This document shows, in pieces, positions 2,620 to 34,544 of a stretch of DNA of 64,000 nucleotides; the stretch's first letter is position 1, and every line of letters begins with the position of its first letter. Below the pieces are notes generated by a model. It saw nothing but the letters and a program-made list of their open reading frames with translations, searched no databases and was not told the origin of the DNA. Location of the stretch: assembly GCF_053078305.1 (NCBI RefSeq), contig NZ_CP166879.1, one strand, 5' to 3'. The position numbers and the translations under genes were made by a program.

Positions 2620-3657
2620 ATGGTCATCAACTGCGCCTTTATTGGCTTCGGCAAAAGCACCACCCGTTACCATCTGCCGTATGTACTTAACCGCAAGGAT
2701 AGCTGGCATGTCGCGCATATTTTTCGTCGCCATGCGAAGCCGGAAGAACAGGCTCCCATTTACTCTCATATCCATTTCACCAGCGATCTCGACGAAGTGC
2801 TAAACGATCCCGATGTTAAGCTGGTTGTGGTCTGCACCCACGCGGACAGCCATTTCGAGTACGCGAAACGCGCGCTGGAAGCCGGGAAAAATGTGCTGGT
2901 CGAAAAACCGTTCACTCCGACACTTGCGCAGGCGAAAGAGCTGTTTGCACTGGCGAAAAGCAAAGGGCTGACCGTCACGCCATATCAGAATCGTCGCTTT
3001 GATTCCTGCTTCCTGACAGCGAAAAAAGCGATTGAAAGCGGCAAGCTGGGAGAGATTGTCGAAGTGGAAAGCCATTTTGACTATTACCGCCCGGTCGCAG
3101 AAACCAAACCTGGGTTGCCGCAGGATGGCGCGTTCTATGGCCTTGGTGTGCATACGATGGACCAGATTATTTCTCTGTTCGGTCGCCCGGATCACGTCGC
3201 TTATGACATCCGCAGCCTGCGTAATAAAGCCAATCCTGACGATACTTTCGAAGCGCAACTGTTTTATGGCGATCTAAAAGCCATCGTCAAAACCAGCCAT
3301 CTGGTGAAAATCGATTATCCGAAATTTATCGTTCACGGTAAGAAAGGTTCGTTTATTAAATACGGTATCGACCAGCAGGAAACCAGCCTGAAGGCTAATA
3401 TTATGCCGGGCGAACCGGGATTCGCAGCGGATGATTCGGTCGGTGTGCTGGAGTATGTCAATGACGAGGGCGTGACGGTCAGAGAAGAGATGAAGCCGGA
3501 GATGGGCGATTACGGGCGCGTTTATGATGCGTTGTATCAAACCATCACCCACGGTGCGCCAAATTACGTCAAGGAATCTGAAGTTCTTACCAATCTGGAA
3601 ATCCTTGAACGCGGATTTGAGCAAGCCTCTCCCTCCACCGTGACTCTCGCGAAGTAA
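2620..3657 (+). CDS. yhhX: Gfo/Idh/MocA-family NAD(P)-dependent oxidoreductase
   Basis: 345-aa ORF with N-terminal Rossmann motif FIGFGKSTTRYHLP; synteny. Confidence 0.9.
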   Translation: MVINCAFIGFGKSTTRYHLPYVLNRKDSWHVAHIFRRHAKPEEQAPIYSHIHFTSDLDEVLNDPDVKLVVVCTHADSHFEYAKRALEAGKNVLVEKPFTPTLAQAKELFALAKSKGLTVTPYQNRRFDSCFLTAKKAIESGKLGEIVEVESHFDYYRPVAETKPGLPQDGAFYGLGVHTMDQIISLFGRPDHVAYDIRSLRNKANPDDTFEAQLFYGDLKAIVKTSHLVKIDYPKFIVHGKKGSFIKYGIDQQETSLKANIMPGEPGFAADDSVGVLEYVNDEGVTVREEMKPEMGDYGRVYDALYQTITHGAPNYVKESEVLTNLEILERGFEQASPSTVTLAK

Positions 3658-28950: not shown

Positions 28951-29709
28951 ATGAAACAAACACAACGTCACAACGGTATTATCGAACTGGTTAAACAGCA
29001 GGGTTATGTCAGTACCGAGGAGCTGGTGGAGCACTTCTCCGTCAGCCCGCAGACTATTCGCCGCGACCTCAACGAACTGGCAGAGCAAAACCTGATCCTG
29101 CGCCATCATGGCGGTGCGGCGCTGCCTTCCAGTTCGGTTAACACGCCGTGGCACGATCGTAAAGCCACCCAGACCGAAGAAAAAGAGAGGATTGCCCGTA
29201 AAGTGGCGGAGCAAATCCCCAACGGCTCGACGCTGTTTATCGATATCGGCACCACGCCGGAAGCGGTGGCGCACGCGCTGCTCAATCACAGCAATTTGCG
29301 CATTGTCACCAACAATCTCAATGTTGCTAACACGTTGATGGTAAAAGAAGATTTCCGCATTATTCTCGCCGGTGGCGAATTACGCAGCCGCGATGGCGGG
29401 ATCATTGGCGAAGCGACGCTCGATTTTATCTCCCAGTTCCGCCTTGATTTCGGCATTCTGGGGATAAGCGGCATCGATAGCGACGGCTCGCTGCTGGAGT
29501 TCGATTACCACGAAGTTCGCACCAAACGCGCCATTATTGAGAACTCGCGCCACGTTATGCTGGTTGTCGATCACTCCAAATTTGGCCGTAACGCGATGGT
29601 CAATATGGGCAGCATCAGCATGGTAGATGCCGTCTACACCGACGCCCCGCCGCCAGTAAGCGTGATGCAGGTGCTGACGGACCACCATATTCAACTGGAG
29701 CTGTGCTGA
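28951..29709 (+). CDS. glpR: DeoR-family repressor of the glp regulon
   Basis: Start placed at MKQTQRHNGIIELVKQQGYVSTEEL (252 aa); DeoR HTH. Confidence 0.92.
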   Translation: MKQTQRHNGIIELVKQQGYVSTEELVEHFSVSPQTIRRDLNELAEQNLILRHHGGAALPSSSVNTPWHDRKATQTEEKERIARKVAEQIPNGSTLFIDIGTTPEAVAHALLNHSNLRIVTNNLNVANTLMVKEDFRIILAGGELRSRDGGIIGEATLDFISQFRLDFGILGISGIDSDGSLLEFDYHEVRTKRAIIENSRHVMLVVDHSKFGRNAMVNMGSISMVDAVYTDAPPPVSVMQVLTDHHIQLELC

Positions 29710-31289
29710 TCCTGCAATGCTTCCCACGTCAGACCAAAACGCGCCAGGTATTTGCGTAGCCGATCCGCGTCATTGACGCTGGCTTTGCCCTGGCGCGAAA
29801 CGTCAAAAAGCTGGCGTCCGGCTGCGGAAAGCGACTTTGCCTGGCGGCAGATTGCGATAACGTGTTCCAGTTGCATACGGTCGAAGAGATCGATGTTTTC
29901 TGCCTCTGCGCCCAGTAGCTGCGTAAGCGCGGAGGGGCGGCTCTCCTGCCAGTTATAGCGCAGACGGTTTATCTCATCTTCAACCACGTCCAGAGTGATG
30001 CGTCCGCTAGTGGCAAAGGTAGCCATCCGCGTGACGCTGGCAGAAAGCTCGCGAAAGTTACCGCGCCATGTTGCCTGGGGAGATGTCGCAAAGGCCAGCC
30101 AGGCGCGCCGCGCTTCGGTGTTAAAACGCACGCTGTCGCCGGTGAGTGAAGCGTGGCGCTCCACTTCATAATCCAGGTTAGGTTCAATATCTTCCTGACG
30201 CTGGCGTAGCCCCGGCAGGGTGAAGGTCCAGAGATTGATCCGCGCGTATAGATCTTCGCGGAATTTGCCATCGGCAACCAGCTGGCGCAAATCACGCACC
30301 GTTCCGGCGATAAGCTGAAAATCACTGCTCACCTGGCGATCGCTGCCAAACGGATAAAAGGTTTTTTCTTCAATGGCTTTCAGCAGCATTGCCTGTTCGT
30401 CTGCGCCCAGTTCGCCAATCTCATCAAGAAACAACATTCCGCCGTTGGCGCTGCGTAATAATCCTTCACGAGATTCCCGCGCCCCGGTAAACGCGCCTTT
30501 CACATGACCAAACAGCGTCGACATGGCGGTATCGCCGCGCAGGGTTGCGCAGTTCACTTCCACAAACGCGCCGCTAAACTGATGCCGCGCCTGTTTTAAT
30601 TCAAATATACGTCGCGCCAGAAATGACTTGCCCGCACCGGTTGGGCCGTTTAGCAGGATCGGTGCGCGGGATTTAATCGCCACTTTTTCAATCTGCTCAA
30701 TCATGCGGTTGAAGTGGGGGTTACGCGTGGCAATACCGGACTTAAGAAAATCAAGCGTTTGCTGGCGTTCCTCGGCAAAGCGGCTGGCGATGGCGTTATA
30801 ACGGCTTAAATCGAGATCGATAATCGTCACTTCACCTGCGCCGCGCGGCTGTTCTTTTTTGCGCGGAGGTGAAGATTGTATCAACCGGGCGGGCAGGTAA
30901 CGCGCTTCAGCCAGCAGAAACCAGCAAATCTGCGCGACGTGGGTGCCGGTGGTGATGTGAATTAAATAGTCTTCTTTTTCTGGCTGAAACTCGTAACCAC
31001 GGGCGAAATCATGCAGGCAGGCGTAAACCTCTTCGAAATCCCACGGGTTATGCAGCTCAATCTCAACGCTCACCACTTCTGTTTCTGGCGAAACGCTGAC
31101 GATATCGCGTTTAAGCGTTTCAAACAGCGAGCGCGAGCGGGCGTCGTGCAATAATTCCAGTCGATCGATGACTAACGATTCTTGCTGGCATATACAGAGT
31201 GACGGACGCCATTTCGACCAGCGCTGACTGCCGCGTCCGGCATAATCCAGTACGGTGCCGACAAAGCCAAAAGCCACTGTTTTACGCAT
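29691..31289 (-). CDS. rtcR: Sigma-54-dependent transcriptional activator of rtcBA
   Basis: Start placed at [16 protein letters not shown] (532 aa); AAA+ core with GAFTGA motif; divergent from rtcB. Confidence 0.92.
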
Positions 31290-31423
31290 CTTAGATATCC
31301 TTATAAAAGACGATATTTCATTATCGGTAAATCGGCTTTGCGGGAAATCTCCGGTTACGGACGTAAAGATATAATCTTTTTTAAAACAATGAATTAAAAA
31401 ATTAATCTGCTTATTTAATTTTC

Positions 31424-31439
31424 TGGCACGACGGTTGCA
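31424..31439 (+). promoter_or_regulatory. Sigma-54 (-24/-12) promoter of rtcBA: TGGCAC-N5-TTGCA
   Basis: Exact match to the sigma-54 consensus, ~37 bp upstream of the rtcB ATG, next to the sigma-54 activator gene rtcR. Confidence 0.88.
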
Positions 31440-31475
31440 ATTATCAGGACATACCAACGAAAAGAGAAAAACAAA

Positions 31476-32702
31476 ATGAATTACGAATTACTGACCACTG
31501 AAAATGCCTCGGTAAAAATGTGGACCAAAGGCGTGCCGGTAGAAGCCGATGCGCGTCAGCAACTTATTAATACGGCGAAGATGCCGTTTATTTTCAAACA
31601 TATTGCGGTAATGCCTGATGTACACCTGGGTAAAGGTTCCACCATTGGTAGCGTGATCCCGACCAAAGGGGCGATTATTCCGGCGGCGGTGGGCGTGGAT
31701 ATTGGCTGTGGAATGAACGCACTACGTACCGCTTTAACGGCGGCTGACCTGCCGGAAAACCTGGCGGAGCTGCGTCAGGCGATTGAAACTGCGGTGCCGC
31801 ACGGGCGTACCACTGGCCGTTGTAAACGTGATAAAGGCGCATGGGAAAACCCGCCTGTTAACGTCGATGCGAAATGGGCTGAGCTGGAGGCCGGTTATCA
31901 GTGGTTAACGCAAAAATATCCGCGTTTCCTTAACACTAACAACTATAAACACCTGGGAACGCTGGGAACGGGTAACCACTTTATTGAAATCTGCCTTGAT
32001 GAGTCGGACCAGGTGTGGATTATGCTGCACTCCGGTTCACGCGGAATTGGTAATGCCATCGGGACTTACTTTATCGATCTGGCGCAAAAAGAGATGCAGG
32101 ACCAACTTGAGACGTTGCCGTCGCGTGATCTGGCGTACTTTATGGAAGGTACGGAATACTTTGATGATTACCTGAAAGCCGTGGCCTGGGCGCAGCTTTT
32201 TGCCAGCCTTAACCGCGATGCGATGATGGAAAACGTGGTAACAGCGTTGCAGAGCATTACGCAGAAAACGGTCAGACAGCCACAAACGCTGGCGATGGAA
32301 GAGATCAACTGTCACCACAACTATGTGCAAAAAGAACAGCACTTTGGTGAAGAGATCTATGTGACGCGTAAAGGCGCGGTGTCTGCGCGTGCTGGTCAAT
32401 ATGGAATTATTCCCGGTTCGATGGGTGCGAAAAGCTTTATCGTCCGTGGGCTGGGAAATGAAGAGTCGTTCTGTTCGTGCAGCCACGGTGCCGGGCGGGT
32501 AATGAGCCGTACTAAAGCGAAAAAACTGTTCAGCGTGGAAGATCAAATTCGTGCTACCGCGCATGTGGAATGCCGTAAAGATGCCGAAGTGATCGACGAA
32601 ATCCCGATGGCGTATAAAGATATTGATGCGGTGATGGCGGCACAAAGCGATCTGGTGGAAGTTATCTATACCCTGCGTCAGGTGGTGTGCGTAAAAGGAT
32701 AA
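31476..32702 (+). CDS. rtcB: RNA-splicing ligase RtcB (3'-phosphate/5'-OH RNA ligase)
   Basis: 408-aa ORF of the expected length and position in the rtcR/rtcBA locus. Confidence 0.95.
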   Translation: MNYELLTTENASVKMWTKGVPVEADARQQLINTAKMPFIFKHIAVMPDVHLGKGSTIGSVIPTKGAIIPAAVGVDIGCGMNALRTALTAADLPENLAELRQAIETAVPHGRTTGRCKRDKGAWENPPVNVDAKWAELEAGYQWLTQKYPRFLNTNNYKHLGTLGTGNHFIEICLDESDQVWIMLHSGSRGIGNAIGTYFIDLAQKEMQDQLETLPSRDLAYFMEGTEYFDDYLKAVAWAQLFASLNRDAMMENVVTALQSITQKTVRQPQTLAMEEINCHHNYVQKEQHFGEEIYVTRKGAVSARAGQYGIIPGSMGAKSFIVRGLGNEESFCSCSHGAGRVMSRTKAKKLFSVEDQIRATAHVECRKDAEVIDEIPMAYKDIDAVMAAQSDLVEVIYTLRQVVCVKG

Positions 32703-33734
<1,032 letters not shown>

Positions 33735-33783: not shown

Positions 33784-34269
33784 TTACTCCAGAGTAATGA
33801 GATACAGTAAGGTAAGTGACTGGAATGGTGAAGGTACAAAGGCATACTTCAGATAGAAATTGCGTACTGAATCGTCTAAGGCATGAACAATAAGCGCACG
33901 AACCCCTACCTGTTGAGCTATGGACATTGTGCGATAGACTGCATCTTTCAACAATGCGACGCCCAACCCTTTACCTGCCCAGGCTTGATCAATTGCCAGT
34001 CTGCCTAATACGACAACAGGCAACGATTCGGGAGCATTACGTCGCATGGCTCCAGGGGCCAAATTACGTTGAATACTGCCTGTAGAAAGGCAGTAATAGC
34101 CGATTACCTGGCGGGTATTGGCAATACAGATAACGTAAACACGAGACAGACCGGAGCTGTGATTTTTTAATGCTTTCTTTTTTAGCCATTCATTCATCCC
34201 GTGATCGGAACAGCAAAAGTCAGCCAGATTATGTTCAGACGTTAGGGGAGTAGGAGCCGTTATTCCCAT
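33784..34269 (-). CDS. GNAT-family acetyltransferase toxin (TacT/AtaT/ItaT/KacT-like; predicted aminoacyl-tRNA acetylating toxin)
   Basis: 161 aa; acetyl-CoA binding motif QAWAGKGLGVALL; start codon lies inside the last codons of the upstream DUF1778 ORF. I do not recall this pair in K-12. Confidence 0.75.
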   Translation of the reverse strand: MGITAPTPLTSEHNLADFCCSDHGMNEWLKKKALKNHSSGLSRVYVICIANTRQVIGYYCLSTGSIQRNLAPGAMRRNAPESLPVVVLGRLAIDQAWAGKGLGVALLKDAVYRTMSIAQQVGVRALIVHALDDSVRNFYLKYAFVPSPFQSLTLLYLITLE

Positions 34270-34544
34270 GGCGATTTACGATTCATCAACGCGTTAATTT
34301 TGGCCTGACGCTCAGCAGTGATGGGGGCGTCCAGGGCAGCCAGAAACGCATCGTATTGCTCGTCATCAAGGATGAATAGTCGTTGATCTAATAAGATGTC
34401 TTGCGCTTCACGGCATGCGGCATCCAGCATAAAATCAGTGCGCGATTTTGCGACCAGATTCGCTGCCATATCAATCAGGTCACGCTGTGAGGCTTTCGCT
34501 CTGATATTGATTGGCGCTTCTTTGCTTTCCGGTTTCATATTCAT
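34260..34544 (-). CDS. DUF1778-type (ribbon-helix-helix) antitoxin partnered with the GNAT toxin
   Basis: 94 aa; INIRAKASQRDLIDMAANLVAKSRTDFMLDAA is the typical DUF1778 N-terminus; upstream of and overlapping the toxin ORF by 10 nt. Confidence 0.75.
   Translation of the reverse strand: MNMKPESKEAPINIRAKASQRDLIDMAANLVAKSRTDFMLDAACREAQDILLDQRLFILDDEQYDAFLAALDAPITAERQAKINALMNRKSPWE

Follow-up and report, generated by a model that had tools for sequence, protein, structure and literature searches.

The sigma-54 promoter of the RNA-repair operon rtcBA in an Escherichia coli genome: position, conservation and candidate upstream elements

The 16-nt element TGGCACGACGGTTGCA, which lies between the divergent genes rtcR and rtcB in the window (the whole 64,000-nt stretch of contig NZ_CP166879.1 analysed here), is almost certainly PrtcBA, an enhancer-dependent promoter of the sigma-54 class that serves the RNA-repair operon rtcBA of E. 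coli. We met no evidence contradicting this identity in our sequence tests or in the literature. The promoter is already known and experimentally characterised, and the window shows it in a further E. coli strain. It is ordinary, with nothing unusual about it. Our own basis for this assignment, obtained from the sequence and computational tools, is the element itself, the identities of the flanking genes, the domains of RtcR and the conservation of the arrangement.

A unique exact sigma-54 element between rtcR and rtcB

The element and the genes on either side of it are as follows.

31424-31439, plus strand: sigma-54 (RpoN) -24/-12 promoter element, TGGCACGACGGTTGCA, an exact motif match and the sole one in the window
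29691-31289, minus strand: rtcR, sigma-54-dependent enhancer-binding activator, 532 aa (NF038308, PF06956, PF00158)
31476-32702, plus strand: rtcB, RNA 3'-phosphate/2',3'-cyclic phosphate to 5'-OH ligase, 408 aa, first cistron (PF01139)
32703-33734, plus strand: rtcA, RNA 3'-terminal phosphate cyclase, second cistron (NF003247)

The element fitted TGGCAC-N5-TTGCA exactly and agreed with the longer core TGGCACG-N4-TTGCW at 12 of 12 positions, with GG at 31425-31426 and GC at 31437-31438 spaced by 10 nt. A sequence-only reading of this DNA had reported the shorter motif about 37 bp upstream of rtcB. The motif proved both exact and unique, as the single match on either strand of the 64-kb window, and the gap from its final base (31439) to the A of the rtcB ATG (31476) was counted as 36 nt, in line with the stated distance. 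The T of TGGCAC lies 135 nt from the rtcR ATG, and the element is oriented away from rtcR.

A chance match to a 12-base consensus in AT-rich intergenic DNA would produce the same string of letters, and in 64 kb the motif by itself was only mildly unlikely: dinucleotide shuffles gave 0.08 exact matches per window, with at least one match in 8 of 100 shuffles. When one or two mismatches were allowed, the 64-kb window contained 19 sites compared to 14.9 expected, none of them prominent. These near-matches stood at chance frequency, and 31424-31439 is therefore the sole site of such quality in the window. Against chance, the rate of 0.08 per 128,000 strand-positions, scaled to the 186 nt of the rtcR-rtcB intergenic region, gave a probability of about 1e-4 for a match in this spacer beside a sigma-54 activator gene. 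Chance is thus negligible given the position and orientation of the element inside the intergenic region. A crude scan of 31200-31560 found no sigma-70-like promoter and no terminator, and a repeat search of the intergenic region returned only AT-rich inverted repeats of low information, missing the CGATA..TATCG dyad described below, which came to light in the cross-species alignment.

The neighbouring gene is the divergent sigma-54 activator gene rtcR, as the same reading had proposed. [quoted passage not shown] RtcB matched PF01139 at 446 bits; none of the NCBIfam RtcB models reached its own cutoff, and the assignment of rtcB comes from Pfam and the RefSeq annotation. RtcA scored 771 bits against the NCBIfam equivalog NF003247 (cutoff 333). 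The rtcB stop codon abuts the first in-frame ATG of rtcA (TAA ATG ATG), and RefSeq places the rtcA start at the ATG at 32706. These gene identities and RtcR domains, together with the published status of the promoter, bear out the regulatory architecture that had been claimed for rtcBA.

The locus corresponds to the glpD-glpEGR-rtcR-rtcBA-malT region of E. coli. A 601-nt query (31100-31700) found matches in 4855 of 5426 complete E. coli genomes; all of them were chromosomal and annotated as rtcR / rtcB, and RefSeq gives the same gene names in TB06051, a genome that is 100% identical over this query. In TB06051 rtcA is annotated as frameshifted; the rtcA of the window is intact. The rtcR-rtcB intergenic region was unmatched in 571 of the 5426 genomes, showing that not every member of the species carries the rtc locus. 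In E. coli LB858871 (L006) the locus has been rearranged by two copies of IS1A: rtcB is in two partial pieces, rtcR is unannotated in the stretch shown, and 50 nt carrying the sigma-54 promoter are still joined to the 5' fragment of rtcB.

The element is identical to the published K-12 promoter

Sigma-54 and RtcR control of rtcBA, and the constitutive activity of RtcR lacking its N-terminal domain, are both credited by later papers (PMC5175333, PMC9650030, PMC3854526) to Genschik, Drabikowski and Filipowicz 1998 (PMID 9738023). Going by citing papers, the loss of induced rtcBA expression without an intact sigma-54 element has also already been reported. In K-12, a sigma-54 ChIP-seq peak upstream of rtcB (OS35) carries the motif CTGGCACGACGGTTGCA, with an occupancy (FAT) of 17, a PSSM score of 11.161 and the mark 'C', for experimentally confirmed in EcoCyc (Bonocora et al. 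2015, Table 1, PMC4591121). Window positions 31423-31439 are identical to this 17-mer. The K-12 promoter rtcBp also shares with the window its flanking genes, the divergent rtcR and the AT-rich upstream tract, and differs from it in leader length (26 nt in the window) and in a few substitutions between enhancer and promoter.

Reporter fusions made from the 175 nt 5' of rtcB (PrtcBA-gfp and PrtcBA-lacZ) show RtcR-dependent induction (Engl et al. 2016, PMC5175333), and E. coli PrtcBA reporters are activated by RtcR without its N-domain (PMC5175333, PMC3854526). The suggestion that the element could anchor reporter fusions is therefore valid, but such fusions already exist and the use is not new.

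A close counterpart is rsrp of Salmonella Typhimurium, which drives rsr-yrlBA-rtcBA(-dinJ-yafQ) and likewise has a divergent rtcR. Its element, TGGCACGCTGGTTGCAAT, has all consensus bases in common with the window and differs in the spacer alone. It is bound by sigma-54, was induced 71-fold in a microarray experiment with the constitutive activator DctD250, and showed strong activity in the wild type that was lost in delta-rpoN (PMC3844500); its dependence on both sigma-54 and RtcR has been demonstrated (PMC3844500, PMC9879122). The first cistron from rsrp is rsr (Ro), followed by Y RNAs, whereas the promoter in the window reads straight into rtcB. The published promoter experiments were done in K-12 and Salmonella; the strain studied here lacks 2 nt of the leader.

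We weighed whether the site could be occupied by sigma-54 and yet be inert or merely repressive, like many intragenic ChIP-seq sites, with rtcBA expressed from another promoter. Binding is no proof of promoter function (Bonocora et al., PMC4591121), some conditions induce rtc without RtcR (PMC9650030), and the native promoter is weak in vitro, as detailed below. In addition, RtcB is incompletely abolished without rtcR (PMC5175333), and because some RtcB expression persists independently of RtcR (PMC5175333, PMC9650030), another weak promoter may contribute. However, the site is intergenic, in sense orientation, 26-28 nt from predicted transcription start to start codon and marked as experimentally confirmed (PMC4591121); reporters carrying the fragment answer to RtcR (PMC5175333), and the Salmonella ortholog is rpoN-dependent (PMC3844500). 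The element also keeps a fixed distance from rtcR across phyla (see below), and the scan of 31200-31560 detected no sigma-70-like promoter. An inert or purely repressive site is accordingly very unlikely, and we retain the reading of 31424-31439 as the functional rtcBA promoter.

Consensus fit does not predict promoter strength

The description of this promoter as perfect holds for its fit to the consensus and fails for its strength. A 12/12 core occurs only once among the 42 intergenic sense-oriented sigma-54 sites of Bonocora Table 1, at rtcB, but this site ranks 14th by PSSM and 16th by ChIP occupancy. The spacer at rtcB, ACGG, is rich in G+C, while A+T-rich spacers are found at the sites with the highest occupancy. 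The native PrtcBA is 'very weak in vitro', and the nifH element was substituted for it in in vitro assays (PMC9650030). Consensus fit is thus no predictor of strength: a perfect core is found here with middling sigma-54 occupancy and weak activity in vitro.

As a discovery the promoter counts for little: its characterisation dates back to 1998, ChIP-seq has mapped it and reporter fusions have already used it. Its value for this strain is as an annotation anchor, comprising the -24/-12 element at 31424-31439, the predicted +1 at 31450 and the 26-nt leader. For work on Rtc regulation, the useful results are the fixed promoter position across phyla and the coordinates of a candidate IHF site and a candidate RtcR enhancer.

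Predicted transcription start and rtcB leader

Placing C31438 at -12 predicts the start of transcription and the extent of the leader.

31450, plus strand: predicted transcription start, C, with A31449 as -1 and A31451 as +2 (inferred from C31438 = -12)
31450-31475, plus strand: rtcB leader, 26 nt (from the sequence and an alignment of E. coli strains)

The predicted +1 coincides with the end coordinate, 31450, that the sequence-only reading had given for the promoter. Native PrtcBA was primed in vitro with the dinucleotide ApC at -1/+1 plus ATP (Kotta-Loizou et al. 2022, PMC9650030). Since the window reads A-C-A at 31449-31451, this published initiation point agrees with +1 at C31450, which nevertheless stands as a candidate position. 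The leader contains a weak purine-rich Shine-Dalgarno-like sequence, AAGAGA, at 31462-31467.

The predicted distance from transcription start to ATG of K-12 rtcB is 28 nt (Bonocora et al. 2015, PMC4591121), compared to 26 nt in the window. The leader is also 28 nt long in the four other E. coli strains that we aligned. Just 3' of the predicted +1, at 31451-31453, the alignment shows a 2-nt deletion, with ACA--TACC in this strain and ACAGCAAAC in the four others. We therefore rejected an error as the explanation for the mismatch in length, as the deletion accounts for it.

Conservation of the promoter within E. coli and across phyla

Within E. coli, the alignment with four divergent strains showed that the consensus positions were kept, the sole change in the element being G-to-A at core position 7 in PK13. 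Of the 4855 E. coli genomes with a match, 2781 carried the promoter 40-mer (31412-31451) unchanged and 2061 carried it with about one mismatch. A control 40-mer from the middle of the spacer (31330-31369) was identical in only 163 and was 80-90% identical in 1408.

A scan for RtcR using one genome per species recovered 18 full-length RtcR loci, from Escherichia, Klebsiella, Intestinirhabdus, Superficieibacter, Iodobacter, Accumulibacter, Pseudomonas, Calditrichia, Desulfobulbus, Desulfogranum and Desulfovibrio. A -24/-12 element (at least 10/12 of the core, GG/GC intact) was present on the strand opposite rtcR, 128-162 nt from the rtcR start, in 16 of these 18, a count in which the Escherichia loci are close relatives rather than independent cases and the argument is carried by the loci outside Escherichia. 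The background of such elements elsewhere in the RtcR loci was 3e-5 per base, corresponding to 0.003 expected per locus in a 101-nt search window. In an alignment of seven Enterobacteriaceae, TCTGGCACG and GTTGCAA were invariant and the intervening bases varied (ACG, CAG, GCG, CCA). This is the pattern expected from selection for sigma-54 binding, as the consensus bases are kept and the spacer bases are free. The conservation, combined with the sigma-54 occupancy in vivo of the identical sequence (PMC4591121), rules out the chance match considered above, which we regard as vanishingly improbable.

The Calditrichia locus (L017) was not counted among the 16: it has TGGCACG-N4-TTGA, in which the -12 GC is replaced by GA, and a Ro-like gene comes after this element. 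For one RtcR-like protein with 43% identity (L022), no convincing -24/-12 element was found within 600 nt. Two further candidates (L025 and L026) were excluded as not being RtcR, since they matched in the AAA+ domain only, at 34-36% identity.

The spacing between promoter and rtcR was constant across phyla, and the first cistron varied among loci. It is rtcB in Escherichia. In Intestinirhabdus, Superficieibacter and Calditrichia the promoter leads into rsr (Ro) plus YrlA Y RNAs; in Desulfobulbus and one Desulfovibrio it leads into rtcA and then rtcB; in Iodobacter the order is rtcB, RlaP, rtcA. In Pseudomonas and Accumulibacter a tRNA-like element is followed by a gene for an SPFH/Band-7 protein, with rtcB after it in the Pseudomonas loci. 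This diversity of operons matches the description by Das and Shuman 2013 (PMC3854526).

An Rfam run on the compared loci gave the tRNA-like calls in Pseudomonas GD03944 and Accumulibacter, at 51-60 bits. The called elements lie directly 3' of the sigma-54 promoter at L014 2637-2709 and L013 1784-1851 (both minus strand); L015 and L016 are further loci of this type. The promoter-proximal sequence was alike in the three Pseudomonas loci. The element may act as a regulatory RNA of the operon, resembling Y RNAs or tRNAs.

The Iodobacter RlaP (L012, 670-1473, minus strand) matched PF10127, the RNA repair pathway DNA polymerase beta family, with E = 1e-95. In Klebsiella oxytoca (L010, about 2680-2830, minus strand) the rtcB start is only 188 nt from the -24 element, and the sequence after the promoter, ATGGCTAATCTACTTCAGTTCCG, is similar to the beginning of rsr in Intestinirhabdus and Superficieibacter. 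This locus looks like one from which rsr and the Y RNAs were apparently deleted, leaving an rsr remnant in the leader. A Desulfovibrionaceae MAG (L024, 1142-2865, minus strand) encodes an RtcR-like activator with 41% identity, and a good -24/-12 element, TGGCATGTTTTTTGCT, is placed at the usual distance. Its first downstream gene encodes an FAD-binding oxidoreductase, and matches to RtcB or RtcA were absent within 3 kb. This activator could be a paralog of RtcR with another operon as its target.

An IHF-like site and a candidate RtcR enhancer

Two further features were found upstream of the -24/-12 element, and their coordinates are those of candidates.

31384-31396, plus strand: IHF-like site, AAACAATGAATTA, one mismatch to WATCAANNNNTTR (footprinting by alignment, enrichment)
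31294-31326, no strand assigned: candidate RtcR enhancer (UAS) (inferred from an Enterobacteriaceae footprint and GATA/TATC enrichment)

The IHF-like site starts 40 nt 5' of TGGCAC, with its centre near -60, within an AT-rich tract at 31377-31422. A plus-orientation IHF-like site with at most one mismatch, located 36-44 nt 5' of TGGCAC, was present in 10 of 17 loci; shuffles averaged 0.3 and never gave more than 2. Perfect matches at 41-42 nt were found in Iodobacter, Accumulibacter and three Pseudomonas loci. An RtcR UAS and an IHF site have been stated to exist at rtc, with no coordinates given (PMC9650030).

The candidate enhancer consists of GATATC at 31294-31299 and the dyad CGATAT-N4-TTATCG at 31311-31326, and corresponds to a second conserved island in the Enterobacteriaceae, beside rtcR, that reads TATAAA-N3-CGATAT-N4-TTATCG. 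It lies about 100-130 nt 5' of the -24 element. The dyad centre is about 130 nt 5' of +1, a normal distance for an enhancer. In 12 non-redundant loci the rtcR-proximal 70 nt contained 34 GATA/TATC tetramers and the distal part only 6; shuffles gave a mean of 9.7 (sd 3.0, max 23), and 0 of 1000 reached 34. A GATA/TATC cluster occurs at the same place in Enterobacteriaceae, Pseudomonas, Betaproteobacteria and Desulfobacterota, and the dyad falls within the 175-nt fragment that confers RtcR-dependent reporter activity (PMC5175333). The RtcR enhancer sequence may already have been defined by Genschik et al. 1998.

Lying 5-37 nt from the rtcR ATG, the candidate enhancer overlaps the leader of rtcR and its ribosome-binding region. 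RtcR bound there could therefore control its own gene as well as activating rtcBA. It is possible, if somewhat doubtful, that the cluster at 31294-31326 is the RtcR enhancer and acts in both of these ways.

The same overlap would favour a different account of the element, in which it chiefly regulates rtcR: a parked sigma-54 holoenzyme, or RtcR bound at the enhancer, would hinder the divergent rtcR promoter. Sigma-54 has been reported to act repressively at some promoters (PMC4551910). Such autoregulation, however, would add to the activation of rtcBA and would not replace it. The -24/-12 element points away from rtcR and begins at a remove of 135 nt from its ATG, and data on rtcR autoregulation were not found in the Rtc literature that we examined. 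We consider a chief role in regulating rtcR extremely unlikely, and keep to the reading that the element drives rtcBA.

A model for activation of rtcBA

Enhancer-dependent sigma-54 promoters that use IHF have a general layout in common: the enhancer is placed about 100-150 nt upstream, an IHF-type bend separates it from the promoter with its GG-N10-GC, and the activator is an AAA+ protein with a GAFTGA loop. With its enhancer and IHF site as candidates, PrtcBA would share this layout with K. pneumoniae nifH, E. coli pspA and glnHp2. It differs from them in its sensor, as RtcR has a CARF-like domain that reads RNA damage in place of a metabolite or a phosphorylation signal (PMC7790460, PMC9650030).

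In the mechanism that we propose, sigma-54 RNA polymerase would bind the -24 GG and -12 GC of 31424-31439 as a closed complex that does not open by itself. Divergently encoded RtcR would bind its enhancer about 100-130 nt upstream, likely the GATA/TATC dyad region at 31294-31326, and an IHF-type bend near -60 (31384-31396) would bring it to the polymerase. Once the CARF-like N-domain is freed from auto-inhibition, the AAA+ ring would touch sigma-54 through GAFTGA and hydrolyse ATP, and transcription would then proceed from about C31450 through the 26-nt leader, rtcB and rtcA. The literature supplies the basis for sigma-54 occupancy, for RtcR dependence and for the signals in this scheme; the releasing signals described there are tRNA fragments with a 2',3'-cyclic phosphate end, and RtcA and RtcB themselves.

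A convergent GNAT/TacA gene pair downstream of rtcA

Beyond rtcA, the window contains a toxin-antitoxin-type gene pair.

33784-34544, minus strand: GNAT acetyltransferase and TacA/DUF1778 antitoxin genes, between rtcA and malT and convergent with rtcBA (Pfam, RefSeq)

The GNAT protein (161 aa) gave weak Pfam GNAT matches, of which only PF00583 was just over its cutoff, and is annotated by RefSeq as a GNAT family N-acetyltransferase. The antitoxin (94 aa) matched PF08681 with E = 1e-19. Only 394 of 5426 complete E. coli genomes contain the 870-bp GNAT/TacA segment. TB06051, whose promoter region is the closest match, lacks it, and there malT lies about 42 bp after rtcA. Our search found no terminator-like site between the stop codons of rtcA (33734) and GNAT (33784), and read-through from rtcBA might therefore extend into GNAT/TacA as antisense RNA. 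Salmonella has a different pair, dinJ-yafQ, 3' of rtcA, which is co-oriented and co-transcribed with the operon (PMC9879122), whereas the pair in the window is convergent.
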